The notes beneath the pieces were generated by a model. The model did not search any database and was not told where the DNA came from. It saw only the letters and a program-made list of their open reading frames with translations. The position numbers and the translations under genes were made by a program. Shown here piece after piece: positions 2,315-17,783 of a stretch of DNA of 17,783 bases. The stretch comes from a virus. Lineage: Duplodnaviria > Heunggongvirae > Uroviricota > Caudoviricetes. Position 1 is the stretch's first letter, and the number at the start of each line of letters is the position of its first letter. The stretch lies in IMG/VR virus record IMGVR_UViG_2671180427_000010. The stretch is one strand, 5' to 3'.

Positions 2315-2409
2315 TTTGTTTTAACCTCATTACAGATTTCAGGGTGAACGAATCCCTGCCATTGCTGGCATTTTTAATCCGTTGGTATGGTGTTAATATG
2401 GCTGGAGGG

Positions 2410-3072: not shown

Positions 3073-3286
3073 GGTGTCCTCAACGGGGGAAGGAATAACC
3101 CCGCCATACTTACCGCCGCGCCATTTCGCGGGTTGCCACAACCGGAAGCGCACGGTCGAATTAAATTTAACGACACCGTACAGTGAGACGAACTTCGCCG
3201 TGCGCTTTCGTGTTGTGTGCCTGCTTTTAACCACGTCAGGCGAGGTGGTATCCTTCTTATCCCGAATAACCAAGAAGGAAATCTAT

Positions 3287-3821: not shown

Positions 3822-3832
3822 CGTCAGCCTCA

Positions 3833-3985
3833 TCAGTCAGTGTTTCTGGCTAACCAGCAACGCGCGCCAGATCCGGTTTTAAACGTTTTGCTTTTGGTAT
3901 ATGTCATCGCGGTGAACGTACCGCCCTGGTTGGGGAACACGCCGTACACCAGAGATTCGTTGTTGCCAAGATCGATAGTATCCAT
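3833..3985 (-). CDS. hypothetical small protein (50 aa; ORF-track version extends to 4078)
   Basis: Internal ATG at 3985 with TGAGGT 5 nt upstream. Stop TGA overlaps ATG of next gene (ATGA at 3831-3835). First gene downstream of the operator at 4102. Confidence 0.4.
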   Translation of the reverse strand: MDTIDLGNNESLVYGVFPNQGGTFTAMTYTKSKTFKTGSGARCWLARNTD

Positions 3986-4101
3986 GTTGACCTCATTTCC
4001 CCTTAACGCCGGGGTAGCGGAACTGTTTGCTGAGAACACCGTGCGGTGTCTTGATGGATCGTAATTTAGTTTTCTCATGAATATTGGTCAAGTACTTTTA
4101 A

Positions 4102-4113
4102 TGAGAAAACTCA
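4102..4113. promoter_or_regulatory. operator-like palindrome TGAGAAAACTCA (left copy)
   Basis: Exact 12-bp palindrome TGAG-AAAA-CTCA, identical to a second copy at 4636-4647. Lies between DicA-like gene end and the next leftward gene. Confidence 0.5.
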
Positions 4114-4176
4114 ATATTTAATGCAAAATAAAGCCAATACATTGAAATGTAAGGCTTTAAAATTTGTGAAGGGGGG

Positions 4177-4584
4177 TTATTGATGTTTGTTACGTTTGCG
4201 AGCTTCTAGTAGCTCGGTGAATAGGCGATTAAAATTCTCAACGCGGGCACGGAGTTCGCTGATTTGTGCTTGCTGCTCTGATTTTGGAAGTGCGCGATAC
4301 AATCGCAACATCTCCAACTCATCTTCCGATAAGTCTAAGGCGCTGTTGAGTGCAACTGGTGGATCTGGTGTTTTATCCTCGTCACCAAACAGTATCCAAG
4401 TTGGTGAACATTGCAATACCTCAGCCAGGCGATGCAAATTTTGCCCGCGCGGGGCTGTATGGTCGCTTTCCCATAGTGAAATTGATGAGCCAGATACGCC
4501 AGCAGCTTTGCTTAAATCGTTTTGACTTAAACCAACCTGTTTGCGTCTTTCTCTAATTCGTTGACCTAAAGTTTTCTCGTTCAT
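4177..4584 (-). CDS. dicA: DicA-like XRE-family HTH repressor (135 aa)
   Basis: ORF track 135 aa. N-terminal HTH (GQRIRERRKQVGLSQNDLSKAAGVSGSSISLWE) and the motif LQCSPTWILFGDEDK recalled from E. coli DicA. Divergent from a Cro-like gene, flanked by identical operators. Confidence 0.75.
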   Translation of the reverse strand: MNEKTLGQRIRERRKQVGLSQNDLSKAAGVSGSSISLWESDHTAPRGQNLHRLAEVLQCSPTWILFGDEDKTPDPPVALNSALDLSEDELEMLRLYRALPKSEQQAQISELRARVENFNRLFTELLEARKRNKHQ

Positions 4585-4635
4585 ATTTAGATATCTTAAT
4601 AACCCTTGACTTGAGATTCCTTGAGTGATTACTAT

Positions 4636-4647
4636 TGAGAAAACTCA
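4636..4647. promoter_or_regulatory. operator-like palindrome TGAGAAAACTCA (right copy) in divergent promoter region
   Basis: Same 12-bp palindrome as at 4102, in the 77-bp intergenic region between DicA-like start (4584) and Cro-like start (4662). TTGAG half-site-like repeats at 4611 and 4621. Confidence 0.5.
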
Positions 4648-4661
4648 ACTTTGGAGGGGTG

Positions 4662-4889
4662 ATGTTTAAATCAGACGTAATTAATTTTTATGGGACGAAA
4701 GCCAAAGTAGCGAAAGCTGCTGGTGTTGATCCATCTGCTGTTTCTCAATGGGGGGAACTGGTTCCTGAAGGTCGCGCGATGCGCCTGCAAGAGGCATCCG
4801 GCGGGGAACTTCAGTACGACCCCAAAGTTTATGACGAATATCGTAAGGCAAAGCGGGCGGGGCGGTTGAACAATGAAAATCACCCCTGA
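4662..4889 (+). CDS. Cro-like small HTH regulator (DicC/YdaS-like), 75 aa
   Basis: ATG 4662 preceded by GGAGG (4653-4657); ORF-track start at 4635 is TTG. Protein MFKSDVINFYGTKAKVAKAAGVDPSAVSQWG. Divergent from repressor. Confidence 0.7.
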   Translation: MFKSDVINFYGTKAKVAKAAGVDPSAVSQWGELVPEGRAMRLQEASGGELQYDPKVYDEYRKAKRAGRLNNENHP

Positions 4890-5424
4890 ACAGGTTTGTG
4901 AGGCTCTGGATGCCTGGGTATGCCGACCAGGAATGACACAGGAGCAGGCGACGATATTAATCACGGAAGCATTCTGGGCTCTGAAAGAACGCCCGAACAT
5001 CGATGTTCAACGCGTCACGTTTAATGATGGCGAGGTTGATCAACGGGCGCTGGGCGTTAACCGGGTGAAGATATTCGAACGCTGGAAAGCTATCGACACC
5101 AGGGATAAGCGGAAAAAATTCACGGCGCTGATTCCGGCAATTATGGAGGCTATCCGAATTAGTGATTTCAGGCTGTATCGTGAGATCAGTGATGGAAAAA
5201 GCATTACGTACATGATCGCCGGATTAAACAAAGAATATGGCGATGTGGTGGAGTCCGGGCTGCTTTTTGCGGATCCAGCTGTTGTGGAACGTGAGACTGA
5301 CGAGCTTATAGAAAAAGCTATTGCTTTCAAGCATGCGTATCGTCAGCAATATCAATATTACTTTGCAGATAAACAAATGTCTGCCAGGGGTTCGTATGAG
5401 TATCGATGCACTACGATGGGCTAA
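4873..5424 (+). CDS. YdaT-like protein (183 aa), positional CII equivalent
   Basis: ATG 4873 overlaps stop of Cro-like gene (coupled). Position matches ydaT of Rac-type immunity regions. Family assignment from context and recollection only. Confidence 0.5.
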   Translation: MKITPEQVCEALDAWVCRPGMTQEQATILITEAFWALKERPNIDVQRVTFNDGEVDQRALGVNRVKIFERWKAIDTRDKRKKFTALIPAIMEAIRISDFRLYREISDGKSITYMIAGLNKEYGDVVESGLLFADPAVVERETDELIEKAIAFKHAYRQQYQYYFADKQMSARGSYEYRCTTMG

Positions 5425-6427
5425 AAAGGTGAAAACCGGCAGTTCATCCAGTAAGTCAGTATTGACCTGGCTTGCTGATATGTGCGGTGCCGATTTGTGT
5501 GCATACCCGTCTGTATCTGCCCTGGCAGAAGTAACGGAACTGAACAAAAAGACAGTGCAGGACAGCTTACGACACCTGATGGAGATTGGGTTAATTGTTG
5601 ATACCGGTGAGAGAAAAGGCAGAACAAAGCAAATTGTGGTGTACCGACTTATCGGTGTAGAAGAAAGTGTTGCCGAACCTGAATACACCCAAAAACGGGA
5701 GTCTTTAAAGGTGGGTAAAATTGGTGCTGTTAATAAAAACAGTACCGAAAATGGTTATGTTTCAGCACAAAACAGACCCAAAAACGGAACTCTTAGCTGC
5801 ATGGAAAATAACCAAAGACACCCAAATTTTCCATCAAAGACACCCAAAAACGGATCACGGAACCCAAAGGAACCCAAAGTTCTAAACCCCACACATAACG
5901 CACGCGAGAGTGCTCTGACCAGTGAGCAGGAAGTTTTGTCGTTACAGGCAGTATTCCTGGATGGCCTGAGAGAACCCATCGGAAAATTTCTGATGACCGA
6001 TAGCTGGCATCCGTCGCGGGATTTTCGACGACGGGCTGCGTTGTGGGGGATGGCTTTGCCGGAGCCGGAATTTACACCTGCTGAACTTGCCGCATTCCGG
6101 GATTACTGGAGTGATGAGGGGAAAGTGTTTACGCAGATTCAGTGGGAGCAGAAATTCGCCCGTCACGTAAATCACGTCAGGGCGCAGGTTAAACCAGTCA
6201 GCAAGGGGGTGAACCATGCAGCAGCACCAGGGGGCACCGCATCACGGGCAGTTCAGGAAATTCGGGCAGCACGTGAGCAGTGGGAACGTGAAAACGGATT
6301 TATCCGCGACGGAAACGGCGTGGAAGCTGTGGGAACTCATGGGGGAGGTTTATTCGAACCGCTGGACCCAGAAGAACGGGGCCGCACCTTCGAAGCTCTG
6401 GATTGCACAGATTGGTGCGATGACTGA
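5396..6427 (+). CDS. phage replication initiator, lambda O-like (winged-helix N-terminus, repeat-rich linker), 343 aa
   Basis: ATG 5396 with AGGGG 5 nt upstream, 29-nt overlap with upstream gene. N-terminal wHTH (LTWLADMCGADLCAYPSVSALAEVTELNKKTVQDSLRHLMEIGLI). Low-complexity linker encoded by iteron-like DNA repeats. Upstream of P-like gene. Confidence 0.6.
   Translation: MSIDALRWAKKVKTGSSSSKSVLTWLADMCGADLCAYPSVSALAEVTELNKKTVQDSLRHLMEIGLIVDTGERKGRTKQIVVYRLIGVEESVAEPEYTQKRESLKVGKIGAVNKNSTENGYVSAQNRPKNGTLSCMENNQRHPNFPSKTPKNGSRNPKEPKVLNPTHNARESALTSEQEVLSLQAVFLDGLREPIGKFLMTDSWHPSRDFRRRAALWGMALPEPEFTPAELAAFRDYWSDEGKVFTQIQWEQKFARHVNHVRAQVKPVSKGVNHAAAPGGTASRAVQEIRAAREQWERENGFIRDGNGVEAVGTHGGGLFEPLDPEERGRTFEALDCTDWCDD
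5772..5880. repeat. iteron-like direct repeats (ACCCAAA-containing) inside O-like gene; candidate replication origin
   Basis: AGACCCAAAAACGGA at 5773, AGACACCCAAA at 5816 and 5839, tandem GAACCCAAAG x2 at 5860-5879. AT-rich stretch immediately to the left (about 5720-5770). Confidence 0.45.
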
Positions 6428-6881
6428 GCAGCAAATCCGACAGGTCTGCCGCCAGTGCATGGACCGCTGCCGGGAGGGTGAAACATGGCCTCCGGACCTG
6501 GCTGAGTTTGTGGCACTGATTTCGGAAAGCGGAGCCAATCCATTCGGTCTGACGGTGGATGCTGTGATGGAGGAGTACCGCCGCTGGCGCAATGAGTCCT
6601 GGCGATACGACGGAAGTGATAAGTACCCGTGGTCTCAGCCTGTGCTGTATCACATTTGCCTCGAGATGCGTTCAAAGGGGGTTGAGCGCCAGATGACCGA
6701 AGGGGAATTAAAACGGCTTGCAGAACGGCAGCTGACGAAATGGGCAAAGCATGTTAGTAACGGCCTGAGCGTTCCGCCAGTCCGGCGACAACTGGCGGCA
6801 CCCAAACGCCCGTCGGGGCCAACGCCAATTGAGTTGCTGAAACAGGAATATGAACGCCGGAAAGCGGCTGGGCTTGTTTGA
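6216..6881 (+). CDS. replication protein P-like (lambda P family helicase loader), 221 aa
   Basis: ATG 6216 preceded by AGGGGGTG. Motifs resemble recalled lambda P (MTEQQIRQ, YPWSQPVLYHICLEM, TEGELKRLAERQL). Alternative start ATG 6420 overlaps the O-like stop (ATGACTGA). Confidence 0.6.
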   Translation: MQQHQGAPHHGQFRKFGQHVSSGNVKTDLSATETAWKLWELMGEVYSNRWTQKNGAAPSKLWIAQIGAMTEQQIRQVCRQCMDRCREGETWPPDLAEFVALISESGANPFGLTVDAVMEEYRRWRNESWRYDGSDKYPWSQPVLYHICLEMRSKGVERQMTEGELKRLAERQLTKWAKHVSNGLSVPPVRRQLAAPKRPSGPTPIELLKQEYERRKAAGLV

Positions 6882-6913
6882 GTTGAGAAGTAATTTTTAC
6901 CGGGAGGAAATTT

Positions 6914-7188
6914 ATGGAGACTGTTTTTGACGCACTGAAAGCAATGGGAAAAGCCACATCCATAGAACTTGCTGCGCGCGTGAAGAAGTGCTGAACGAAC
7001 TATGGGAACTGAAAAAGGCTGGTTTTGTTGATAAAAGCGCGTACACCTGGCGTGTGGCTGATAACAACGTTCAGCAGGAACAGCCAGCGCAGGCAGAACT
7101 GCCGGAAGAAACCACCACAATGAGTGAAGTTATGCAGCGCATACTGGCATTTTATCAGGGAAATGTTCGATATTTTAGACGTTACTAG
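6914..7188 (+). pseudogene. small winged-helix protein gene apparently split by a 1-nt frameshift near 6988
   Basis: ATG 6914 with GGGAGGAAA upstream encodes [26 protein letters not shown] then stop at 6992. Continuation in another frame from 6988 ([23 protein letters not shown]) resembles the intact small gene at 16375. Confidence 0.35.
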
Positions 7189-7554
7189 ATTAAAGAGCAT
7201 TAGTTCAGATGTGAATTGACATTGTGTGGCACAGGGTTGGGCTAGCGTGGGGGTTTGCTTTGTGTAAGAAACGGATGCTCTGCAAATTACTACTAATGCT
7301 TAATGTTAGTCTGATCTGCTCCCCGATGATTAATACACCGCTATGTTAGTAATGTCTGTAGATCGCTGTGTGTTGCATCCATCGGTTGACCCCACAGTCC
7401 AAACCAGACTGTCAGCTTTGATTCGATTCTATCTACTCAACCTGTCAGGTAATGTCTGAGCTAATACACAGAGTACGGCTATCGCGAACTTTAAGCTAGG
7501 TATCTGATACGCACCGTTCACTTGTTTGTACTTCTTGCACTGACTAGCTATCGT

Positions 7555-7590
7555 GCGCAGTTATTTATAGGTAATCTCCAGTGTATAATT
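7555..7590 (+). promoter_or_regulatory. candidate promoter for the 281-aa gene (TATAAT -10 at 7584-7589)
   Basis: Consensus TATAAT at 7584-7589 with TG immediately upstream, about 40 nt before ATG 7628. The -35 is weak (TTATTT at 7561-7566). Confidence 0.35.
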
Positions 7591-7627
7591 TTCCAACTTA
7601 TGGGAGATTGTAAAACAGGAGGAATAT

Positions 7628-8473
7628 ATGAGGAAAAAATCGTTTGGACGTTGCCCGTTTGATTTCGACGAAGATGTAAAAAAAATAGCCGCGATAAATA
7701 AATATATCCATGCGAAATTTGAGAGGCATAAAAATAAAATAGATAACCTAAAGGGGGTGGAACAAAAATTGATGGTTTTACATTACTTTAATGTACTGAA
7801 TGAACTTAGTAATCAGGCTATATTTTCTTTGAGTACCGGAGCCTTTTCAGCATCGGAAGTATTAACTAGAGTTATAATGGAACAGGCTGCCAATCAATTT
7901 TATATAGCAATTGATGATGGAAAAAATGCACAAGCATTACTCAAGGGTAGTAAGAAATTAGTTCATAGTAATGGGAAACGGTGGCTGGAGTGTTTAAAAT
8001 CCAAAGAAATGACTAATCCAGCAGCAGATGAAAGGATTCGTATCGGAAAAGAGCTAACTGATATGTTTAATAGATTGTGGCCAAATACACCTGAATATCC
8101 TGGAACCAAAAAGCTTTTCGAAGTAATTGGCTGGGAAACACACTATCATGCCTATTACGTCCCTCTTTGTGATTCAATACATACATTCTCTGATGATATG
8201 GCAAATATAGTATCTCTATATAATGCAATCCAAAGCGATAAAACTACTGCTATCGAACTCACTCTTGCAGTTAAACAAGAAAATAAACGGCTGGCAATTT
8301 ATAATGTCGTAATTGCTATTGGCCTGCGGTGTGAGGCCTTAGTAAATGTATTTAACTCTTTAGGTTATCGAGATATTATAACTGAAATGGCGCCAACAAT
8401 AGATGCAGTCAACCAGATTATAATTCGATATGATGATTTCGAACATTCCAGAATTTTTATTGTCAATAATTAA
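7628..8473 (+). CDS. hypothetical protein (281 aa), AT-rich, no recognised domain; candidate accessory or defence gene
   Basis: ATG 7628 preceded by AGGAGG (7616-7621). ORF track 281 aa. No Walker, RT or nuclease motifs seen by eye; a C-terminal R-x5-H (RYDDFEH) is too weak to interpret. Confidence 0.75.
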   Translation: MRKKSFGRCPFDFDEDVKKIAAINKYIHAKFERHKNKIDNLKGVEQKLMVLHYFNVLNELSNQAIFSLSTGAFSASEVLTRVIMEQAANQFYIAIDDGKNAQALLKGSKKLVHSNGKRWLECLKSKEMTNPAADERIRIGKELTDMFNRLWPNTPEYPGTKKLFEVIGWETHYHAYYVPLCDSIHTFSDDMANIVSLYNAIQSDKTTAIELTLAVKQENKRLAIYNVVIAIGLRCEALVNVFNSLGYRDIITEMAPTIDAVNQIIIRYDDFEHSRIFIVNN

Positions 8474-8526
8474 TTGGCAGAATTCGTACATGCACAACAA
8501 CTAGTTATAGTTGACCTATTTCGCTC

Positions 8527-9095
8527 TTGAGAGACAACCATACTCAAATCTTCCACATTGCAGGAGATTTGAGTATGAATACGTCACCGAGGAACAAAGA
8601 CAGTATCATAGGCCCAAAAAGACCACTTCAGATATCTCATATCTGGGGGCTCCAAATCCGGCTTGAACTGGAAGGTAAAACGCGTGATTTAGCTCGGTTT
8701 CAAGCAGAGCTACGGTGCTGCAACTGAAAAACTGGCAGTCCTATCCAATTTGAGATAACCAAAGGGACAAGAGAAGCTGTTTCTGCATTGATAAAGCTTG
8801 GCAATTTACGCAGTAAAGACTACTTGTTCCGATCTCGGGTCGGTACTAACCAACACATATCAATCCTGCAATATAACCGAATCTTTCATAGGGGGGAGAA
8901 AAGCTTGGTCTCGAAGATTCGCTTTACAGCACACATTCCATGAGAAGAACAAAACCTTGCCTTGTCTGCAAGAAAACTAAGAATCTCCGGGTGATCCAAC
9001 TTCCGTTGGGCCATAAGAAAACGGAAAGCACAGTTCGTTATCTGGGTATAGAAGTTGATGATGCATTAGAGATCTCTGAATCGATCGAAGTCTAA
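8527..9095 (+). pseudogene. tyrosine recombinase (phage integrase) C-terminal fragment with in-frame stop and frameshifts
   Basis: Frame 1 reads GLQIRLELEGKTRDL, in-frame TGA at 8725-8727, then KTGSPIQFEITKGTREAV...DYLFRSRVG. A second frame has RRFALQHTFHEKNKT. A third frame (8940-9095) ends RVIQLPLGHKKTESTVRYLGIEV, matching the conserved integrase C-terminal LGH...T..Y motif. Confidence 0.55.
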
Positions 9096-9101
9096 AGCTG
9101 T

Positions 9102-9123
9102 CAGGGCTGCAGCAGCAGCCCTG
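9102..9123. other. perfect 9-bp stem hairpin (CAGGGCTGC-AGCA-GCAGCCCTG) just after the integrase fragment
   Basis: Exact inverted repeat with 4-nt loop; no U-tract on either strand, so not a typical intrinsic terminator. Confidence 0.4.
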
Positions 9124-9507
9124 TGCCAAGAGCGTACCAATATATGTCTCAAAAAATTGGGCACAGGTCAATATCAATACCAACAACTCTGATTGTGCTC
9201 ATGTGATTTACTCCTGTAGAAAACGCAGACAGTAAAAATATTTCACTGGCTGCTTCAGACAGGGCGTCCATCATATCATTACATAACAATAGCGGGGCAC
9301 GATATCTAGACATGCAGCAACGATGGACATAGAATGAGTACAATCAAAAGCATGTTTAACTACTTTAATTTAAAAATCTTAGAATCTTAGGTGTAGAGTT
9401 CAATACTTAGTTACATACCCTTTTGAAAGCATCACAAATCATAACTATGAGCCTGTTAAAGGCATAGGTATTCTTAATTAAGAGCATTTTAATGAGAGAA
9501 AAATAAA

Positions 9508-10881
9508 ATGAAAAGACTATATTATACCCATCATGATAGTCGAACCTTAAAACTTGCTATAGAAGGTGATGTTTCTGATAATGCGAATATTTTTACAGTA
9601 ATTGTAGGTAAAAATGGCGTTGGAAAAAGCAGATTGTTATCTCAGATTGCTAAAGACTGTATTCAAGATGTTCATTTCTTGAAAACTTTTAATCCATTAT
9701 TTGACAGAGAAATAACACCAAAGTTAATTGCCGTATCTACCAGCCCATTCGATAAATTCCCTCCAGGGCGTAGGTCATTAAATCACCAAAGGAAAGAAAA
9801 TAATTATCGCTATGTGGGTATGCGTGGAGAAGGCCCCTTCGGCGTATCAAATGCCGTATCCCTTTTATCTTCAGCAGCGAGAGGTTGGCTAGAGAAACTT
9901 GCTTATTCAGAAAATCCTGCAAATTTACTCGATGTTTTTCATTCTATTGATTTTGAGCCCCATATAGAGTTTGTATTTAAACCAACTTACAACGGACCGG
10001 ACACTCCTGACTATAACTTCATTGGTGTATATTCAGATGAGATATTAACGGAAGTTAAGGAGTTATATTTAAAATACAATATAAAAATTGACAGGAAGAA
10101 TATTGAGAGTCTCTTAAAGTTAAACTCCGAATCACGTCATGATATTTACGAAGCACTGGTTGAAATTAATCGATTTGAACCTGAACGTAGGGCTGTAACC
10201 TTGTCAGTCGATTTTACCAATGGTGAAACATTGGTTGGCTCGACTTATGCGAATAATTATTTTTCTAGATCAATTCTTAAACTTATGAACGCTGGCTTCA
10301 TGAGATTGATGGATATGCGACTCATAAAAAAAAGCTATGGTCCCATGTCACTTAAACGTGCGAGCTCGGGAGAACAATGTTTATTAGTGATGTTGCTTGG
10401 AATTGCAGGGCATATAACTGATGGTTCTATAATATTAATTGATGAACCGGAAATAAGCTTGCATCCTCGATGGCAGGAAGAGTTTATCATTATGTTAACA
10501 AAAGCATTTTTAACTTACTCAGGTTGTCAATTCATAATTGCAACTCATTCACCACAAATAATATCCAATTTGCCGAATAAAGGTTGTTATATAACATCTT
10601 TGTCGAAAAGTTATCTTTATAAAGCAAAATACTTTAGCAACCGGTCTGCAGACTATCAACTTGCGGAACTATTTGATGCCCCTGGCATTATGAATGAATA
10701 CATTGCCAGGTTAGCTTTCAATTTACTTTCAAAAGTTAAGACTGCTAAGTTAGTAACAGATGATAATTGGCGTGAATTAAAACAACTCCAACTTCTCCTT
10801 GAAAACGTTAATAGTAATGACCCTATTAATGAACTCGTAAATTCCGTATCTCAGGTGTGTGAAATTTATGCCAAAAATTAA
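9508..10881 (+). CDS. ptuA: ABC-type ATPase, Septu PtuA-like (457 aa)
   Basis: Walker A VGKNGVGKS, signature-like SSGEQ, Walker B IILIDEPE, H-loop IATHSP. AT-rich. Followed by an overlapping HNH nuclease gene, the Septu two-gene architecture. Confidence 0.7.
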   Translation: MKRLYYTHHDSRTLKLAIEGDVSDNANIFTVIVGKNGVGKSRLLSQIAKDCIQDVHFLKTFNPLFDREITPKLIAVSTSPFDKFPPGRRSLNHQRKENNYRYVGMRGEGPFGVSNAVSLLSSAARGWLEKLAYSENPANLLDVFHSIDFEPHIEFVFKPTYNGPDTPDYNFIGVYSDEILTEVKELYLKYNIKIDRKNIESLLKLNSESRHDIYEALVEINRFEPERRAVTLSVDFTNGETLVGSTYANNYFSRSILKLMNAGFMRLMDMRLIKKSYGPMSLKRASSGEQCLLVMLLGIAGHITDGSIILIDEPEISLHPRWQEEFIIMLTKAFLTYSGCQFIIATHSPQIISNLPNKGCYITSLSKSYLYKAKYFSNRSADYQLAELFDAPGIMNEYIARLAFNLLSKVKTAKLVTDDNWRELKQLQLLLENVNSNDPINELVNSVSQVCEIYAKN

Positions 10882-11503
10882 AAATCCAATTAGATTCAGC
10901 GCAGAGTCATTAGATATTATTGAGAAAAAATTGTCTTCTCCAGATTTTAAGCATACCAACTGGGGAGATGATGATTTGCAAGTTCTCCGTGCAGAAATTA
11001 GAAATCATTACAGAGAAGAACAAAAGCTAGAATGTGTATATTGTCATGAGCCTATTGGGGTAAGAGCTGCACAAGCTGCTCCTATAGAGCATATTGTGCC
11101 AAAATCTCAATATCTATGTTTTATTTTTGAACCTAAGAATCTATGTGTAGTATGTCCTGACTGCAATGAATTCAAAGGTAAAAATGAAGTGTTATTTGAA
11201 CCCGTAATAAATGGGGGGCGGCGCAAAAACTATCCAACTGCATCTGCATCATTTCGCATCGTTCATCCACATATAGATGATTATGAGATGCATATTATAA
11301 AAGCAAATCGTGTTTATGTGGACAAAACACCTAAAGGGCACTATACCATTGGAATATGTAAACTAAATAGATTTTTTCATTATTTTGGGATGTGTGATGA
11401 ATTTGTTAATGATGCAAAAATTGCTGAGGCAAATGAAAATTTTTTCAAAAAAGGTAGTATTACTACTAATGAATTATTGGATGATGACATTCATTTGATT
11501 TAA
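10868..11503 (+). CDS. ptuB: HNH endonuclease, Septu PtuB-like (211 aa)
   Basis: HNH motifs CVYCHEPIG, IEHIVPKS, CVVCPDCNEFKG. ATG 10868 overlaps ATPase gene end by 14 nt (ORF-track start 10859 is GTG). Confidence 0.7.
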   Translation: MPKIKNPIRFSAESLDIIEKKLSSPDFKHTNWGDDDLQVLRAEIRNHYREEQKLECVYCHEPIGVRAAQAAPIEHIVPKSQYLCFIFEPKNLCVVCPDCNEFKGKNEVLFEPVINGGRRKNYPTASASFRIVHPHIDDYEMHIIKANRVYVDKTPKGHYTIGICKLNRFFHYFGMCDEFVNDAKIAEANENFFKKGSITTNELLDDDIHLI

Positions 11504-11816
11504 CTATGAATTATTATATTGTAAAGTAATCAGGTAAGATATGTTAGACAGTGAGACTATTGCCTTACAGAATTCATTATTCTTATGGATCGCCTTTCTG
11601 ACTGATTTCATATTGGCGGGGTAACGGGAGTTAAGTAGAATGGCTGCGGGTGCTTGAGGCTATCTGTCTCAGGCATGAACACCAAAGGCAGATAGAGAAA
11701 AGCCCCAGTTAACATTACGCGTCCTGCAAGACGCTTAACATTAATCTGAGGCCAATTTCATGCTAGACACATGTAGGTTAGCCTCTTACGTGCCGGAAGG
11801 CAAGGAGAAGCAGGCT

Positions 11817-11972
11817 ATGAAGCAGCAAAAGGCGATGTTAATCGCCCTGATCGTCATCTGTTTAACCGTCATAGTGACGACACTGGTAACGAGGAAAGAC
11901 CTCTGCGAGGTACGAATCCGAACCGGCCAGACGGAGGTCGCTGTCTTCACAGCTTACGAACCTGAGGAGTAA
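11817..11972 (+). CDS. hokD: Hok/Gef-family type I toxin, HokD (RelF)-like, 51 aa
   Basis: Protein MKQQKAMLIALIVICLTVIVTTLVTRKDLCEVRIRTGQTEVAVFTAYEPEE matches the Hok family (TM helix, conserved C and Y). AAGGAG 8 nt upstream of ATG 11817. ORF-track start at 11760 is an in-frame extension. Confidence 0.8.
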   Translation: MKQQKAMLIALIVICLTVIVTTLVTRKDLCEVRIRTGQTEVAVFTAYEPEE

Positions 11973-12040
11973 GAGACCCGGCGAGGGAGAAATCCCTCGC
12001 CACCTCTGATGTGGCAGGCATCCTCAACGCACCCGCACTT

Positions 12041-12072
12041 AACCCGCTTCGGCGGGTTTTTGTTTTTATTTT
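12041..12072 (+). terminator. rho-independent terminator downstream of hokD-like gene
   Basis: Stem AACCCGC/GCGGGTT with TTCG loop followed by a T-run (12057-12072). Preceded by a 9-bp stem with GAAA tetraloop at 11980-12001. Confidence 0.6.
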
Positions 12073-12188
12073 CAACGCGTTTGAAGTTCTGGACGGCGCC
12101 GGAATAGAATCAAAAATACTTAAGTAGCGCGCAGGGATAAGAGGGATGGTCCCTTAAAGGGGAGAGCTAATTATCCGGAAGGATTCTG

Positions 12189-12440
12189 ATGATGAACATC
12201 GAAGAACTGCGTAAAATTTTTTGTGAAGATGGCCTCTATGCTGTGTGCGTTGAAAATGGAAATCTTGTTAGTCATTACCGCATTATGTGTTTGCGAAAGA
12301 ATGGGGCTGCGTTAATTAATTTTGTGGATGGTCGAGTGACAGACGGATTTATCTTGCGCGAAGGTGAGTTTGTCACTTCATTACAGGCACTGAAAGAGAT
12401 CGGAATAAAAGCAGGCTTTTCAGCTTTTGCAGAAGAATAA
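12189..12440 (+). CDS. rem: Rem-like small protein (83 aa)
   Basis: ORF track 83 aa MMNIEELRKIFCEDGLYAVCVENGN. Position immediately downstream of hokD, as in the Qin prophage. Identification from recollection. Confidence 0.55.
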   Translation: MMNIEELRKIFCEDGLYAVCVENGNLVSHYRIMCLRKNGAALINFVDGRVTDGFILREGEFVTSLQALKEIGIKAGFSAFAEE

Positions 12441-12506
12441 ACTCATCTACAATCTTGCGCGGGGCTGAACTCCCGCTGAGTAACACCGTGCCACCGGAGA
12501 AAACCG

Positions 12507-12785
12507 ATGGCACGCAACGTAAAATATTACAATTCTGATAATTCGCCCGTTCTTGCCTGCACGCACGAGCGGTATTCTCACGCATTCAAGTCTGAATGGT
12601 TCCAACACCCTCCATGTACTGAAGAGCAGGCTGAATGGATAATTCAGTGTTACCGCAGGCGCGGATACGAGGTTAAGAAAGCCCTTAGTCTCGACTACCG
12701 TCACTGGATAATCTCCGTCAGGCTTCCTTACTCTGAACGCCCACCGCGTCCGTCTCGCACATTCCAGCAACGCATCTGGAGGTAA
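12507..12785 (+). CDS. hypothetical protein (92 aa)
   Basis: ATG 12507 preceded by GGAGAAAA. Stop lies 2 nt before the next gene start. Confidence 0.55.
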   Translation: MARNVKYYNSDNSPVLACTHERYSHAFKSEWFQHPPCTEEQAEWIIQCYRRRGYEVKKALSLDYRHWIISVRLPYSERPPRPSRTFQQRIWR

Positions 12786-12786
12786 C

Positions 12787-13836
12787 GTGCGGGTATTACT
12801 TCGACCTGTTCTGGTACCGGAACTCGGGCTGGTGATCGTTAAGCCGGGCCGTGAATCCATGCCAGTATTCCACAATACCCGGGTATTGATGGAGCCGGAA
12901 CCGAAAAGCATGCGTAATCTGCCGTCCGGGGTCGTTCCTGCCGTTCGCCAGCCGCTGGAGGAAGACAAAACATTGCTGCCGTTTTTCAGTAACGCACGGG
13001 TGATTCGTGCTGCTGGTGGTGCTGGTGCATTGTCTGACTGGCTGTTGCGCCATATTAAATCCTGCCAGTGGCCACACGGCGATTATCATCACAGCGAAAC
13101 TGTCATTCACCGTTATGGTACCGGCGCAATGGTGTTGTGCTGGCACTGCGACAACCAGCTGCGTGACCAGACATCCGAATCACTCGAGCAACTTGCTCAT
13201 CAAAACCTGTCAGCATGGATGATTGACGTCATCGGTCACGCAATAAGCGGTACGCAGGAGCGTGAATTATCTTTGGCTGAATTATCCTGGTGGGCGGTCC
13301 GCAATCAGGTGGCGGACGCGCTACCGGAAGCGGTATTACGTCGTTCGCTGGGGGTGCGTGCGGAAAAAATCCGCTCAATGTACCGTGAAAGCGACATCGT
13401 GCCGGGAGAGCAGACCGCCACCAGCATACTGAAGCAGCGCACAAAAAATATTGCGTTACTGCCTGACGTCCACCAGCAACAGAACCCACCACAGGAAAAG
13501 ACGGTGGTCAGCATTGCCGTTGATCCTGAGTCTCCGGAATCTTTCATGAAACGACCTAAACGTCGCCGCTGGGTTAACGAGAAATACACACGCTGGGTGA
13601 AGACTCAGCCGTGTGCGTGTTGTGGTAAGCCAGCCGACGATCCCCATCACCTGATTGGTCATGGTCAGGGCGGAATGGGGACAAAATCTCACGATATTTT
13701 CACGCTACCGCTGTGTCGGGAGCATCACAACGAGCTTCATGCGGATCCGCTGGCGTTCGAAGAAAAGCATGGCTCTCAGGTTGATTTAATTTTTCGTTTT
13801 CTTGATCACGCCTTTGCAACTGGCGTGCTTGGGTAA
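12787..13836 (+). CDS. ydfU: YdfU-like DUF968 protein with HNH-like C-terminal motif (349 aa)
   Basis: GTG 12787 preceded by GGAGGT at optimal spacing. C-terminus has CACCGKPADDPHHLIGHGQGGMGTKSHDIFTLPLCREHHNELH. Length and position after rem match Qin ydfU (recollection). Confidence 0.55.
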   Translation: MRVLLRPVLVPELGLVIVKPGRESMPVFHNTRVLMEPEPKSMRNLPSGVVPAVRQPLEEDKTLLPFFSNARVIRAAGGAGALSDWLLRHIKSCQWPHGDYHHSETVIHRYGTGAMVLCWHCDNQLRDQTSESLEQLAHQNLSAWMIDVIGHAISGTQERELSLAELSWWAVRNQVADALPEAVLRRSLGVRAEKIRSMYRESDIVPGEQTATSILKQRTKNIALLPDVHQQQNPPQEKTVVSIAVDPESPESFMKRPKRRRWVNEKYTRWVKTQPCACCGKPADDPHHLIGHGQGGMGTKSHDIFTLPLCREHHNELHADPLAFEEKHGSQVDLIFRFLDHAFATGVLG

Positions 13837-13848
13837 AAGAGGTGACTG

Positions 13849-14220
13849 ATGCTCATAGATTTGGTTTTACCTTACCCGCCGACGGTGAACACTTACTGGC
13901 GACGCCGTGGCAGCACATATTTTATCTCGGAGGAGGGAAAGCGTTATCGCCGGGCTGTGGCGCTTATTGTTCGCCAGCAGCGGCTGAAATTAAGCCTGTC
14001 CGGAAGGCTGGCGATAAAGGTGATTGCAGAGCCACCGGATAAGCGCCGTCGTGACCTGGACAATATCCTGAAAGCACCACTGGATGCGCTGACGCATGCC
14101 GAACTTCTCATAGACGACGAGCAGTTTGATGAAATCAATATTGTGCGCGGTCAGCTCGTTCCTGGTGGGCGACTGGGCGTGAAGATTTACGAAATCACAG
14201 GTGATAACGATGGCGCGTGA
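13849..14220 (+). CDS. rusA: RusA-family Holliday junction resolvase (123 aa)
   Basis: AGAGGTGA upstream of ATG 13849. Motifs [10 protein letters not shown] and [18 protein letters not shown] match the RusA family. Located just upstream of Q, as in lambdoid nin regions. Confidence 0.75.
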
Positions 14221-14596
14221 TATTCAGCAGGTTATGGAACGGTGGGGGGCTTGGGCTGCAAACACTCATGAAGATGTATCCTGGGCGTCGATCGCTGCTG
14301 GTTTTAAAGGGTTAATTCCGTCGAAAGTGAAATCACGTCCTCAGTGTTCTGATGATGATGCAATGATAATTTGTGGCTGTATGGCCCGGTTAAACAAGAA
14401 AAATCAGGATTTGCACGATTTGCTGGTGGATTATTACGTATATGGAATGACTTTTATGAGTCTGGCACGGAAACTTGGATGTTCGGATACCTGTGTTGGT
14501 AAGCGCCTGCAGAAGGCGGAAGGGGTTATCGATGGCATGTTGATGATGCTTGATATCCGGCTGGAGATGGACAGATATGTAGAACGAATTATGTAG
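14210..14596 (+). CDS. quuD: late-gene antiterminator Q, QuuD-type (128 aa)
   Basis: [23 protein letters not shown]...[14 protein letters not shown]...[21 protein letters not shown] resembles recalled DLP12 QuuD. ATG 14210 overlaps rusA-like stop. Followed by PR'/tR'-like elements. Confidence 0.7.
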
Positions 14597-14601
14597 GTGC
14601 T

Positions 14602-14631
14602 TGACCATATACATTGTCCGGGGCTATATTC
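14602..14631 (+). promoter_or_regulatory. PR'-like late promoter (TTGACC, 18-bp spacer, TATATT)
   Basis: -35 TTGACC 14602-14607 and -10 TATATT 14626-14631, immediately downstream of the Q gene. Confidence 0.5.
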
Positions 14632-14692
14632 CTCGCGCGTCAGCAAAATCTGGCGTCGGGATTGGAACCCCGGATATTCAACCGCGACAGAC

Positions 14693-14717
14693 ACACGCCG
14701 CGAGCGTGTTTTTTATT
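14693..14717 (+). terminator. tR'-like intrinsic terminator (Q-antiterminated)
   Basis: Stem ACACGC/GCGTGT with CGCGA loop followed by TTTTTTATT, about 75 nt downstream of the PR'-like -10. Confidence 0.55.
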
Positions 14718-14878
14718 GTCGTAAGCACACGCACATCTGAATAATGGTGGGGCGTATGGGGGAGCTGAAAGGCTCGCCGGTTGGTTGATCCGGTAGTTCC
14801 AACCCTGTACGTCTCACCACCCAATGATTGGAACCTGACGGTGGTGATAGTTAAATCCATCAACCAGAGGGCGTTATC

Positions 14879-15439
14879 ATGACGACTCAAGTTTCTGTCG
14901 AAACTCTTTCCCCGATCACACACAACCAGCTCCCAGTTGTCACTACAGAGTTACTGGCCAAACTATATGGCTGTAGCGTCGAGTGTATTCATAGAAATCA
15001 CCACCGTAATAAAGAGCGATTTGCAGAAGGGAAGCACTACATAATTGCGAAAGGCGCAGACCTCCAAAATTTGAAAATCTCTTTAAGGGATTTTCAAACG
15101 ATCGCCCCAAATGTCCGAAAGCTCATACTCTGGACAGAACGCGGAGCAGCCCGTCACGCCAAAATGCTCGAAACCGATCAGGCGTGGGAAGTATTCGAAA
15201 AACTGGAAGACTGTTATTTCAACCAAAAACAACCACCAGCGGCACAAAACACATCTATCGAAAATGATGGATGCGCATTACTGATCCACTTCGATAAACA
15301 TGGTCAGGTTGAGTTCACGGAAAAGGTGCCCGCCGATGCGATGGTATGCACTCTGGAACGGTTTAAATTTTATCTGGAGCAACACGGGTGGATCGTTGCC
15401 CGTAAAGAGCAACTGGTGGAGCGGTTGATGCGGCTTTAA
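14879..15439 (+). CDS. ORF6N-domain protein (antirepressor-like), 186 aa
   Basis: AGAGGG upstream of ATG 14879. N-terminal region (LPVVTTELLAKLYGCSVECIHRNHHRNKERFAEGKHYII...RKLILWTERGAARHAKM) resembles the ORF6N/Rha-type domain by recollection. Confidence 0.55.
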   Translation: MTTQVSVETLSPITHNQLPVVTTELLAKLYGCSVECIHRNHHRNKERFAEGKHYIIAKGADLQNLKISLRDFQTIAPNVRKLILWTERGAARHAKMLETDQAWEVFEKLEDCYFNQKQPPAAQNTSIENDGCALLIHFDKHGQVEFTEKVPADAMVCTLERFKFYLEQHGWIVARKEQLVERLMRL

Positions 15440-15514
15440 AAATTTCCCCCGAACGCTTTACGATCGTAAAAAGTTGAATATACTGTTAAGAGTGGTTACT
15501 ACGCCGCACAGCTT

Positions 15515-15541
15515 AAACCCGCCGATGAGCGGGTTTTTTTG
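15515..15541 (+). terminator. rho-independent terminator
   Basis: Stem AAACCCGC/GCGGGTTT with CGATGA loop and T-run; may belong to the upstream gene or to the IS left end. Confidence 0.6.
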
Positions 15542-16262
15542 TGCACAGAAAACCCCCAGCTAGGCTGGGGGTTCCGGAAAGCTTTCAGCTTTGAGCCAGT
15601 TATTAAAACCCCTTTTGATTTGTTAAAACACCTTGCGGTCTGGCAACTGCAAGTGTCAAACAAGAAATCAAAAGGGGGTCCCAATGGGGAACGAAAAGAG
15701 CTTAGCGCACACCCGATGGAACTGTAAATATCACATAGTATTTGCGCCAAAATACCGAAGACAGGTGTTCTACAGAGAGAAGCGTAGAGCAATAGGCTGT
15801 ATTTTGAGAAAGCTGTGTGAGTGGAAAAGTGTACGGATTCTGGAAGCTGAATGCTGTGCAGATCATATCCATATGCTTGTGGAGATCCCGCCCAAAATGA
15901 GCGTATCCGGCTTTATGGGATATCTGAAAGGGAAAAGCAGTCTGATGCTTTACGAGCAGTTTGGTGATTTGAAATTCAAGTACAGGAACAGGGAGTTCTG
16001 GTGCAGAGGGTATTACGTCGATACGGTGGGTAAGAACACGGCGAAGATACAGGATTACATAAAGCACCAGCTTGAAGAGGATAAAATGGGAGAGCAGTTA
16101 TCGATTCCCTATCCGGGCAGCCCGTTTACGGGCCGTAAGTAACGAAGTTGGATGCAAATGTCAGATCGTGTGCGCCTGTTAGGGCGCGGCTGGTAAGAGA
16201 GCCTTATAGGCGCATTTGAAAAACCTCCGGCTATGCCGGAGGATATTTATTGTGCCCGAAAA
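15532..16262 (+). mobile_element. IS200/IS605-family insertion sequence (IS200-like); boundaries approximate
   Basis: Contains Y1 transposase gene. Subterminal hairpins with 8-bp stem and 3-nt loop on both sides: CCCCCAGC-TAG-GCTGGGGG (15552-15570) and CCTCCGGC-TAT-GCCGGAGG (16234-16252). Ends estimated, not determined. Confidence 0.5.
15684..16142 (+). CDS. tnpA: IS200-type Y1 transposase TnpA (152 aa)
   Basis: MGNEKSLAHTRWNCKYHIVFAPKYRR...HIHMLVEIPPKMSVSGFMGYLKGKSS...NREFWCRGYYVDTVG has the HUH motif (HIHML) and catalytic Y region of IS200 TnpA. AAGGGGG upstream of ATG 15684. Confidence 0.85.
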   Translation: MGNEKSLAHTRWNCKYHIVFAPKYRRQVFYREKRRAIGCILRKLCEWKSVRILEAECCADHIHMLVEIPPKMSVSGFMGYLKGKSSLMLYEQFGDLKFKYRNREFWCRGYYVDTVGKNTAKIQDYIKHQLEEDKMGEQLSIPYPGSPFTGRK

Positions 16263-16374
16263 GCGGTACAGAACATTAAACGCGCTGGTGGTTGCGAATA
16301 CCGGTCTTTCAACTTGCTGGCTTTTTCGACAAGAGTTATTGGTATGTTACGTTAACCAGAAAAGGGAAAAAGAC

Positions 16375-16572
16375 ATGCTAAAACAGCAGGATATGACCGA
16401 AACCGCCAGAGTGGTGTTTAATGAGTTAAGCGTCACCGAACCGGCGACAGTCGGGGAGATTGCGCAGAATATGTACCTTTCACGCGAACGCTGCCAGTTA
16501 ATACTGACCCAGCTGGTTATGGCGGGTCTGGCAGACTATCAGTTTGGTTGTTACAGAGTCCTTCAGTCCTGA
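16375..16572 (+). CDS. small winged-helix-like protein (65 aa)
   Basis: ATG 16375 with AAGGGAAAAAGAC upstream; ORF-track start at 16216 lies in the IS right-end region. Resembles the frameshifted small gene at 6914. Confidence 0.45.
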   Translation: MLKQQDMTETARVVFNELSVTEPATVGEIAQNMYLSRERCQLILTQLVMAGLADYQFGCYRVLQS

Positions 16573-16708
16573 AGGTTTTTTATTTGTGGTAAATGGGCGG
16601 CTGGTGGGTGTTAGCGGCACCTGTCAGTCATTTGCTTATGTGTTGATGAGAATTTACTTTTTGGGGCTATAATTAAGCTAACCGATTGCTAATTAAAGTA
16701 AAATTATA

Positions 16709-17422
16709 ATGACTGCTATCTGTTCAGTTATCATGGTTTGTTCCCCAATTAATATTTTTCTTGAAAAGGATACATTGTCACTTAAGCCCGGCTCAGTCGT
16801 TCTGGCCACCAAATGCATCAGGGAGCTTTTCCTTATGCATTATGGCAAAGTTAAAATTGTCGATATAAGCCATTCTATAGTAAGTCAATATCTGGAAAGC
16901 CAGCATAAGCTGACGAGAGGTCCTCTGACTGACATTCCGCTTTACTTGTTGCTGGAACCCAACAATCCTGCGTTGACTGTGGCTTTAATTACCAGTCAGA
17001 GACTTTCCGGAGAGACCACGGATATGTTTCTTATGATGGCCTGCCTGTCGCTGTTTGAATCAGATGAACGGATGTCATTATTTTTAAGTGGATGTGTATC
17101 CAGTATAAGTGCCAAAGTCAGAGCGATAATTCAAACAGATATATCAGCAAGCTGGACGCTTGGTGCGATTGCTCTACAGTTGCATATGAGTGAGAGCTTG
17201 TTAAAGAAAAAACTCAAGGATGAAGGTCTCAGGTTCAGTAATTTGTTACTTGAGGAACGGATGCGGGTTGCTGTAAATATGTTATGTTCCCGGCATGGAT
17301 ATGGACAGGCTGTAGCAGCAAAATGCGGTTATTCAAGTAGAGCCTACTTTATCTCTGTATTTCACCGCTATTATGGCTTCCCGCCAGACAGATATGTATC
17401 CAGGCAAGGGCTTGATTTTTGA
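16709..17422 (+). CDS. AraC/XylS-family transcriptional regulator (about 237 aa; start uncertain), AT-rich
   Basis: C-terminal AraC-type double HTH (WTLGAIALQLHMSESLLKKKLKDEGLRFSNLLLEERMRVAVNMLCSRHGYGQAVAAKCGYSSRAYFISVFHRYYGFPPDRY). No clear SD at 16709; alternative ATG at 16733. Confidence 0.65.
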   Translation: MTAICSVIMVCSPINIFLEKDTLSLKPGSVVLATKCIRELFLMHYGKVKIVDISHSIVSQYLESQHKLTRGPLTDIPLYLLLEPNNPALTVALITSQRLSGETTDMFLMMACLSLFESDERMSLFLSGCVSSISAKVRAIIQTDISASWTLGAIALQLHMSESLLKKKLKDEGLRFSNLLLEERMRVAVNMLCSRHGYGQAVAAKCGYSSRAYFISVFHRYYGFPPDRYVSRQGLDF

Positions 17423-17448
17423 TTTCATCTGATTATTATTTTCGGCCC

Positions 17449-17524
17449 GGCCTTTTAGCTCAGTGGTGAGAGCGAGCGACTCATAATCGCCAGGTCGCTG
17501 GTTCAAATCCAGCAAGGGCCACCA
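17449..17524 (+). tRNA. tRNA-Ile2-like, anticodon CAU (lysidine type; could be Met by anticodon alone)
   Basis: Hand-folded cloverleaf: acceptor GGCCTTT/AAGGGCC, D-arm GCTC-AGTGGTGA-GAGC, anticodon loop CTCATAA, T-arm GCTGG-TTCAAAT-CCAGC, discriminator A, CCA. Resembles recalled E. coli ileX. Confidence 0.75.
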
Positions 17525-17531
17525 TCACATA

Positions 17532-17608
17532 CCGCCATTAGCTCATCAGGAAAGAGCGCCAGCTTTCGAAGCTGGTTGCGCGGAGTTCGGGTCCCCGAAG
17601 GCGGTCCA
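17532..17608 (+). tRNA. tRNA-Arg-like, anticodon UCG, with non-canonical T-arm (possibly degenerate)
   Basis: Acceptor CCGCCAT/AAGGCGG (one mismatch), D-arm GCTC/GAGC, perfect anticodon stem CCAGC/GCTGG with loop TTTCGAA, T-arm CGGAG-TTCGGGT-CCCCG (one mismatch, G at position 58), CCA. Confidence 0.5.
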
Positions 17609-17621
17609 TTATCTGTATCCT

Positions 17622-17679
17622 GCGTTGTTAGCTCAGCCGGACAGAGCAATTGCCTTCTAAGCAATCGGTCACTGGTTCG
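17622..17679 (+). pseudogene. 3'-truncated tRNA-Arg (anticodon UCU) fragment
   Basis: Acceptor 5' GCGTTGT, D-arm GCTC-AGCCGGACA-GAGC, anticodon stem ATTGC/GCAAT with loop CTTCTAA, T-stem 5' ACTGG and TTCG, then no matching T-stem or acceptor 3' strand (ACAACGC absent downstream). Confidence 0.5.
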
Positions 17680-17783
17680 GTAAGCGACTCGTCAGAACCG
17701 TATTGATATTTACTGAGAGCTCAGATCAACTTTCCAGGGCAACAGATCGCGTACCCGGTTTGCCGGCCAGTCCTGGATATGTT

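Follow-up and report, generated by a model that had tools for sequence, protein, structure and literature searches.

What lies between the antiterminator gene Q and the lysis genes of a lambdoid prophage, and can cargo there have taken the place of the lysis cassette itself? The question was raised by positions 14,597 to 17,422 of IMG/VR record IMGVR_UViG_2671180427_000010, a stretch of 17,783 nucleotides of Caudoviricetes DNA (the whole stretch is called the window here). An earlier note, made from the sequence alone, had described a Q gene and a promoter/terminator pair followed by an ORF6N-domain gene, an IS200-family insertion sequence (IS), a gene for a small winged helix-turn-helix (wHTH) protein, and an AraC-family regulator, and had proposed that these genes replace lysis. 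All of the features that it listed are present, on the plus strand and where it had placed them (Table 1). We consider it very probable that the region comes from a CP-933M-like lambdoid prophage of Escherichia coli, where it forms the promoter-proximal part of the late operon, and that it is made up of known modules only: an IsrK-type short RNA, a C4-type antisense element with an antirepressor-like gene, and a regulator of the PsrA/PsrB family. Content of this kind is ordinary and conserved in the late region of CP-933M-like and Shiga toxin (Stx)-like prophages; its parts have been characterized by experiment in O157:H7 and in Salmonella, and in this sense it is already known.

The window is a segment of a lambdoid prophage. 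Its positions 1 to 17679 are 99.98% identical, over their whole length, to the prophage of E. coli Z1322HEC0003, the left part of which carries an integrase, an exonuclease, dicB, repressor/cro, replication genes, a low-GC island, hokD, rem, DUF968, RusA, and Q. After Q come the ORF6N gene, IS200C, a hypothetical gene, the HTH protein, tRNA-Ile, two copies of tRNA-Arg, and a SASA-family esterase, and then a class II holin, lysozyme, the lysis protein Rz, terminase, and head and tail genes. Holin, lysozyme, and Rz thus lie ca. 2.5 to 4.5 kb downstream of the regulator in this nearly identical prophage, and lysis genes are also found downstream in the SCU-125, O157:H7, and EDL933 relatives. The lysis cassette has therefore not been replaced; the window merely ends before reaching it. 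The tRNA cluster indicates the usual stx insertion site, empty here as in the Z1322HEC0003 prophage, which has no stx, and the lysis and morphogenesis genes lie beyond the window end.

The right end itself does not suggest otherwise. The last 104 bases belong to the end of an IS66-family element (ISCro1-like, beginning GTAAGCG) inserted in the third tRNA, which is intact in the Z1322HEC0003 locus (L001, 19422-19498), and the junction between this tRNA and the IS66-family element was found in one piece in no complete genome of the collection (genome counts throughout refer to 5,426 complete E. coli genomes). This end is probably where the contig or assembly broke at a repeat. We considered and rejected that late genes had been deleted there, since the sequence is an IS66-family end, typical of contig breaks.

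That the late operon lost its lysis cassette, or exchanged it for cargo (ORF6N, IS200, wHTH, and AraC genes) expressed mainly on Q-dependent induction, is consequently very unlikely in the face of the downstream holin, lysozyme, and Rz genes. It is true that no lysis gene follows Q within the window, that the genes run in the direction of late transcription, and that the terminator-like hairpins between them could be read through by a Q-modified polymerase. Yet the regulator has a conserved promoter-like element of its own, and ORF6N encodes a phage regulator, as detailed below.

Probable late promoter and IsrK-type short RNA

The Q gene belongs to the Q21/QuuD-like family. Its nearest structures in the PDB are those of Q21 (6p18/6jnx; E value, 1.2e-7), which are distant kin; it is annotated as Q in the RefSeq record of the Z1322HEC0003 prophage and has 81% identity to the Q of the yccA prophage of EDL933. 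Immediately after it, the earlier note had recognized a PR'/tR'-like pair. Consensus scans by themselves were near chance in this window (6 promoter-like sites versus 5.1 expected from shuffled sequences, and 7 terminator-like sites versus 3.6). Because the promoter-like count was no higher than in the shuffles, the call needed independent support, and this came from an Rfam scan at gathering thresholds. The isrK family matched at full length (model positions 1 to 77 of 77; gathering score, 50; E value, 6e-15), in a match that starts 40 nt after the Q stop codon and spans from ca. 7 nt past the −10 hexamer to the U-tail of the terminator. We therefore take the promoter/terminator pair to be real and to yield an IsrK-type short RNA, which validates the earlier call.

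The layout is that of PR'-tR', namely, a Q gene, a sigma-70 promoter, an early intrinsic terminator, and then late genes on the same strand (lysis and head genes in the complete relative). The promoter was found directly after Q in every relative examined. An alignment with an O157:H7 prophage that has a different Q-type gene (DUF1133) showed that the −35 hexamer is kept and that the two sequences are near-identical from TCCGGGGCTATATTCC onward. Between prophages with Phage_antitermQ and those with DUF1133, conservation extends to the −35, the −10, and the transcript, and ca. 12 nt of the promoter spacer (14607-14618, compared with 7991-8010 of the O157:H7 locus L003) differ. The differing segment may be a Q-specific binding element, or it may be merely a recombination junction. 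IsrK has been classed, alongside StxS and lambda 6S RNA, as the product of an antitermination-regulated promoter (Sy et al., PMC7547250). We have good confidence that the promoter at 14601-14630 is both PR' and the isrK promoter, presumably dependent on Q. From PR', transcription would mostly end at the intrinsic terminator after ca. 77 nt, giving an IsrK-type small RNA (sRNA).

The same site could also be read as a repressor-controlled promoter similar to that of the c4-ant operon in P1 immI, with the Q-dependent promoter lying elsewhere or nowhere. The C4 and c4-a1b1 families found here stem from P1/P7 immI, an operon that is under the C1 repressor and not Q, and the work on the Gifsy-1 prophage treats PisrK as a promoter responsive to stress, that is, stationary phase, low Mg, and peroxide (PMC4825925). 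We nevertheless judge this alternative quite unlikely, given the invariable position of the promoter immediately downstream of Q, the Q-type-specific sequence that stops inside its spacer, and the class to which Sy et al. assigned IsrK. Moreover, no other plus-strand promoter-like site turned up in the scan between the tRNAs and the holin of the Z1322HEC0003 prophage.

C4-type element and ORF6N gene

With PR' as the preferred identity of the promoter, the first gene on the path of a read-through transcript is the ORF6N gene, 164 nt past the IsrK terminator. Its product matches phrog_2379 ("anti-repressor") over its full length (E value, 1e-83) and is 46 to 56% identical to the annotated Ant of Stx phages. 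By homology, it is a phage antirepressor-like regulatory gene and not cargo. The earlier note was right about the place, as Stx-type lambdoid prophages classically carry their morons here, but the phrog_2379 assignment and the IsrK/C4 context remove the ORF6N gene from the cargo that it had listed. As a separate matter, the ORF6N, wHTH, and AraC proteins were considered as defense genes and rejected, since PADLOC gave no credible assignment; its hits were two weak PDC-S05 matches, to ORF6N.

The leader of the ORF6N gene contains the elements of a C4-type switch. Besides isrK, the Rfam scan gave full-length matches to C4 (model positions 1 to 87 of 87) and to its upstream targets, c4-a1b1, the latter overlapping the 5' half of IsrK, and the same trio was found in the O157:H7 and SCU-125 relatives. 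The C4 element has two recognition segments, GGTTGA at 14783, in a hairpin loop, and GTTCCAA at 14796, which is single-stranded. Within IsrK, GATTGGAAC at 14660 is complementary to the segment at 14796, and TCAACC at 14678 to that at 14783. Second copies of both targets follow the element, and the one containing ATCAACCA adjoins the Shine-Dalgarno sequence of the ORF6N gene. The predicted IsrK-C4 duplex had an energy of −56.9 kcal/mol versus −40.9 ± 5.0 for shuffled sequences (a value reached by 1 of 300 shuffles), and in the minimum free energy fold of 14637-14900, a central part of IsrK is likewise paired to the C4 element (14659-14675 with 14788-14805). The duplex of IsrK with the ORF6N leader was no better than those of shuffles.

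In the Salmonella prophage Gifsy-1, the order is antQ, isrK, a region with conserved nucleotide sequence ("orf45," which gives rise to a processed stable RNA and the amino acid sequence of which is itself not conserved), and the antirepressor-like anrP; there, short IsrK acting in trans on the read-through transcript opens translation, and AnrP then raises antQ expression (PMC4825925). By analogy, and following the logic of c4-icd-ant in P1, transcripts made here by read-through or by a Q-modified polymerase would contain the C4-type element, the segments of which, on the long RNA, would hold the ORF6N gene translationally off. Free IsrK would compete for the C4 element and so turn ORF6N translation on. 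The complementarity is observed directly in the sequence, and by homology we consider it probable that IsrK and C4 control ORF6N translation through it.

Several observations do not sit easily with this scheme. The energy of the duplex between C4 and the ORF6N leader was not distinguishable from those of shuffles (35 of 300 reached the real value); because the downstream duplex energies match the shuffles, it is the exact repeated motifs that carry the assignment of the second targets as a2/b2. In addition, the ATGs at 14744 and 14756 open just a 14-codon open reading frame (ORF) ending at 14786-14788, that is, the Gifsy-1 orf45 frame is broken here. No ATG opens the frame that runs into the ATGA overlap at the ORF6N start; its starts are TTG and GTG only. 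The published orf45-type translational coupling to the antirepressor may thus differ in this prophage. We also observed that the broken orf45-counterpart frame fits the 14744-14788 region acting as a C4-like RNA and not as a conserved peptide.

Psr-family regulator

The AraC/XylS-type gene is intact, without frameshift and collinear with all of its homologues over residues 1 to 237; the pseudogene that the earlier note had allowed for can be set aside. Residues 155 to 230 matched HTH_AraC (E value, 2.8e-11) and HTH_18 (3.3e-10), and the best match in the PDB was the DNA-binding domain of GadX (3mkl; 5.7e-20). In NCBIfam, YdeO (aligned over the full length) and GadX scored best and are its nearest chromosomal families, but the scores fell far short of the equivalog cutoffs, so that no equivalog could be assigned, and the source names of the protein cluster gave no functional name either. 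The homology search against prophage-encoded regulators that the earlier note had suggested placed the protein in the Psr family. Identity was 99% to the SCU-125 allele, 95% to the copy in the Stx2k phage phiSTEC1575 (directly upstream of the tRNAs and stx2k), 90% to the EDL933 copy in O island 57 (OI-57), and 88% to the copy in the EDL933 yccA prophage, compared with 36 to 37% to the AraC-family protein of OI-8, presumed to be PatE. The exact sequence was found on 263 contigs.

The two EDL933 copies lie in similar surroundings. Around the first (L005, 25275-25988, in the OI-57 region), the genes run in the order Q-type gene, 65-amino-acid hypothetical protein, HTH protein (the copy itself), tRNAs, TerB, esterase, lysis genes, and PerC-family gene. 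Around the second (L010, 21009-21722, in the yccA-integrated prophage), the order is Q, CPBP protease, frameshifted TrmB-like gene, HTH protein (again the copy itself), three tRNAs, and esterase. They are 91% identical to each other, in line with the published account, in which PsrB (z2104, OI-57) is 90% identical to PsrA, is carried by a prophage, and is linked to Pch regulators as well as effector loci (PMC10877973, PMC8565820). We infer that the OI-57 copy is PsrB and that the yccA-prophage copy is PsrA. The regulator of the window would then be, with high probability, a third Psr allele, carried by non-O157 human isolates and marked by 23 to 28 substitutions.

Some points argue against this assignment or limit it. 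The equation of the EDL933 copies with PsrA and PsrB draws on location, copy number, and mutual identity and not on a named sequence. In the literature, psrA (z1789) was placed in OI-50 (PMC10877973, PMC8565820), while in resequenced EDL933 we found no AraC gene after Q in the potC-adjacent (OI-50) prophage (L004, 1.62-1.67 Mb), and the second psr-type copy is in the yccA prophage (L010, 1.245-1.294 Mb). This mismatch may reflect a prophage misassembly in the original EDL933 genome or a naming issue. Finally, a divergence of 10 to 12% in amino acids could change target specificity, and it is a possibility, though not a likely one, that the third allele has diverged in target range from PsrA and PsrB.

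The position of the gene was constant. In all six loci inspected for late-region context (among them Z1322HEC0003, phiSTEC1575-Stx2k, O157:H7, SCU-125, and the two of EDL933), the psr gene lies between Q, on its upstream side, and the tRNA cluster. DNA similar to psr (at least 88% nucleotide identity) was present in 726 of the 5,426 complete genomes (ca. 13%), with a median of two copies, and the carriers included O157:H7 and isolates not labeled O157 or enterohemorrhagic E. coli, as well as an Stx2k phage. The earlier note had named ordinary conserved late-region content in related phages as a finding that would speak against it, and this is what the wHTH-AraC-tRNA block in those 726 genomes proved to be. 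In phiSTEC1575-Stx2k, the wHTH-Psr-tRNA block (L002, 6085-8766) stands directly upstream of the A and B genes of stx2k; the leader of the toxin transcript in this inducible phage therefore encodes a Psr-type host regulator. In many Stx phages, including ones without a psr gene, the 65-amino-acid wHTH gene is likewise conserved directly upstream of the tRNAs, and it has the same place in phiP27 and in EDL933, where the copy in the yccA prophage is frameshifted.

When would the regulator be made? Its promoter-like element, ATGAGA-16-TATAAT, was invariant in an alignment of five loci, the coding sequences of which are 90 to 95% identical. Most likely, the regulator gene is served by a promoter of its own and expressed in the lysogen, and Q-dependent read-through would add to this on induction. 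For the regulator, then, the earlier statement that the cargo is transcribed on Q-dependent induction is probably overstated, with a promoter-like element conserved better than the coding sequence. The description of the gene as AT-rich holds in a mild form, with a GC content of 42.3% for the gene and 36.8% for the 136-bp leader versus 45.5% for the window.

PsrA and PsrB raise the expression of gadE and yhiF and thereby repress type III secretion from the enterocyte effacement locus (LEE), and PsrB, which binds at the promoters of gadE and hdeA, improves survival in acid (work of Tree et al. 2011 and Yang et al. 2015, reviewed in PMC10877973 and PMC8565820). Phenotypes of psrA deletion have been reported without mention of prophage induction, and PatE (z0321, OI-8/CP-933H) is a further prophage-encoded AraC-like activator of acid resistance, with hdeA and gadE as targets (PMC10877973). 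Following its PsrA/PsrB homology, the regulator studied here, made in the lysogen, would bind AT-rich host promoters (gadE and hdeA) and raise glutamate-dependent acid resistance; in LEE-positive strains, it would be expected to lower type III secretion indirectly. The suggestion of the earlier note that the regulator could act on host genes is thus borne out, at the family level, by the literature on gadE, on hdeA, and, indirectly, on LEE.

The opposite view, that the AraC-type gene is a leftover, decaying or silent and without function in this host, appears extremely unlikely to us. The host prophage does carry IS200 and IS66 insertions and a truncated tRNA, and silencing of AT-rich prophage genes by H-NS is common. 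Against decay or silence stand the full-length ORF of 237 amino acids, its collinearity with the homologues, the 263 contigs with the exact protein, the 99% identity in SCU-125, and the invariant promoter-like element.

IS200C insertion and neighboring features

IS200C is the sole locally unusual feature of the region. The SCU-125 prophage, 98 to 99% identical to the window, has an empty site, and alignment with it delimits the element up to an ambiguity of 6 nt (TTGTGC, present at both ends). The name comes from the RefSeq annotation of the Z1322HEC0003 prophage, and the assignment to IS200 is consistent with the Y1 transposase, the size of ca. 0.7 kb, the structured ends, and the existence of an empty but otherwise identical site. 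Of the 5,426 complete genomes, only 2 have the region with IS200C inserted in it. The element would have landed just after the ORF6N terminator, in an event that was recent and rare and probably neutral.

The insertion bears on a broader idea, namely, that the Psr regulator is functionally linked with the IsrK/C4 switch and the AnrP-like antirepressor in one unit. We hold this to be unlikely. If it were true, partial read-through or Q antitermination from PR' would tie prophage induction to the acid resistance and secretion program of the host, and the inserted IS200, which has terminator-like hairpins at its ends, would undo this tie in the present prophage.

TABLE 1 Features of the Q-to-tRNA region, with positions in the window
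Feature	Position	Strand	Evidence or remarks
DUF968 gene	12787-13836	+	Pfam
RusA gene	13849-14220	+	Pfam
Antiterminator Q gene (Q21/QuuD-like family)	14210-14596 (alternative GTG start, 14201)	+	Pfam Phage_antitermQ, E 2.8e-52; phrog_79
Late-promoter-like sigma-70 site, TTGACC-18-TATATT	14601-14630	+	Consensus scan
Upstream C4 targets (a1/b1-type), overlapping 5' half of IsrK	14624-14676	+	Rfam RF03163 c4-a1b1, 49.3 bits (gathering, 46.7)
IsrK-like RNA, PR'-tR' "6S-like" sRNA	14637-14714 (78 nt)	+	Rfam RF01394 isrK, 75.6 bits
Intrinsic terminator-like GC-rich hairpin and T-run	14693-14709	+	Terminator scan
C4-type antisense RNA element	14740-14824	+	Rfam RF01695 C4, 71.8 bits
Second target copies (putative a2/b2-type)	14826-14866	+	GATTGGAAC at 14826, ATCAACCA at 14859 (TCAACC at 14860)
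ORF6N-domain antirepressor-like gene (AnrP/Ant-like)	14879-15439	+	PF10543, E 2.8e-16; start in ATGA overlap
Intrinsic terminator-like hairpin after ORF6N	15515-15540	+	Scan; intact in IS-free SCU-125
IS200C insertion, ca. 711 bp	15545-16255	+	Alignment with SCU-125 prophage, which lacks the element
STnc490 5' untranslated region RNA within IS200C	15551-15674	+	Rfam, 146 bits
tnpA (Y1 transposase)	15684-16142	+	Y1_Tnp, E 1.7e-37; NCBIfam IS200 equivalog NF033573
Right-end hairpin of IS200C	16224-16242	+	In element
65-amino-acid winged-helix protein	16375-16572	+	phrog_331, E 1.2e-35; weak TrmB match, E 0.002
Terminator-like hairpin at end of wHTH gene	16560-16575	+	Scan
Terminator-like hairpin preceding regulator promoter-like element	16599-16629	+	Scan
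Promoter-like element of regulator, ATGAGA-16-TATAAT	16646-16673	+	Scan, 10/12 matches
AraC/XylS-type regulator, 237 amino acids, intact	16709-17422	+	HTH_AraC, HTH_18
tRNA, CAT anticodon (ileZ position)	17449-17524	+	Met by ARAGORN, Ile in RefSeq; Rfam scan
tRNA-Arg (TCG) (argN position)	17532-17608	+	ARAGORN; RefSeq annotation of relative; Rfam scan
Third tRNA (tRNA-Arg, argO position), 5' 58 nt only	17622-17679	+	Identity to Z1322HEC0003 prophage ends at 17679
End of IS66-family element in third tRNA	17680-17783	+	ISCro1-like; last 104 bases

Other features of the prophage were recorded alongside. Past the tRNA cluster and beyond the window, the empty stx site of the relatives (L001, 19575-19765; L003, 11186-11441) holds members of the STnc100 sRNA family. 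In the Z1322HEC0003 prophage (L001), nanS-p also follows the tRNAs, and in the O157:H7 prophage (L003), the anti-GcvB sRNA AgvB is located there as well. In the early region, a 36% GC island (7500-11503) contains a Septu-type antiphage defense pair, the AAA ATPase PtuA (9508-10881; PADLOC PDLC00283; E value, 1e-165) and the HNH nuclease PtuB (10868-11503; PDLC00325; 1e-83), next to a DUF5677 gene (7628-8473) and to what is annotated in the Z1322HEC0003 prophage as a degraded tyrosine recombinase. A hok/sok-type toxin-antitoxin locus follows at 11648-11972 (Rfam sok, 117 bits; hokD is annotated in the Z1322HEC0003 prophage), and the DicF sRNA lies at 2958-3009 on the minus strand, adjoining dicB. 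The hok/sok-type locus and DicF/dicB are typical content of Qin- and CP-933M-like prophages.

Comparison with known systems

As a discovery, the locus has little value, being a textbook case of lambdoid regulatory cargo between Q and the lysis genes in which each component has a characterized counterpart. Its value is for annotation. RefSeq calls the regulator just a "helix-turn-helix domain-containing protein" and leaves the RNA elements unannotated, and the locus can now be named as a Psr-family regulator of acid resistance and type III secretion preceded by an IsrK/C4-controlled antirepressor, with the graded confidence given above.

The short RNA resembles StxS and lambda 6S RNA in its origin, a constitutive late promoter that directly follows Q, and in the early intrinsic termination that yields a short transcript, of a family described as Hfq binding (PMC7547250). 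It differs from StxS in sequence family, which here is isrK, and the likeness implies no targets such as rpoS or stx1. With Gifsy-1 (PMC4825925), the region shares Q, the promoter, a 77-nt IsrK with its terminator, a structured spacer, and an antirepressor-like gene. The C4 element sits here where "orf45"/STnc1160 sits in Gifsy-1, the start of the antirepressor gene lies in the same ATGA overlap, and, as in orf45, there are two in-frame ATGs 12 nt apart (14744 and 14756), ca. 107 nt from the transcript start. As a difference from Gifsy-1, the Rfam scan of the window found no match to isrJ after the ORF6N gene.

In P1, the C4 antisense RNA controls icd-ant, as is well established and as the Rfam family descriptions relate. 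The window shares with P1/P7 immI the match to the C4 family, the upstream a1/b1-type target, and a second pair of motifs by the ribosome-binding site of an antirepressor-type gene. It differs in that the cassette is part of a lambdoid late operon after Q and not of a C1-controlled immunity operon, in that the antirepressor is of the ORF6N type, and in that there is no icd-like ORF at the window locus.

The backbone and the tRNA cluster are those of the moron region of Stx phages (Q, methylase/wHTH, ileZ-argN-argO, stxAB, nanS-p, S-R-Rz), with stx missing here, as seen in the complete relative. PatE has the same protein architecture as the regulator and is collinear with it over the full length, but it lies in another prophage and at another position, at the low identity given above. 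A further likeness is to the PsrA and PsrB loci, which have in common with the window a 237-amino-acid AraC/XylS-type protein, the same conserved promoter-like element, and the order Q, (variable gene), 65-amino-acid wHTH, regulator, tRNA-Ile/Arg/Arg, and late genes. What differs is the module between Q and the wHTH gene, which consists of the ORF6N gene and IS200 in the window, of a CPBP protease gene in the yccA prophage, and of nothing in OI-57.

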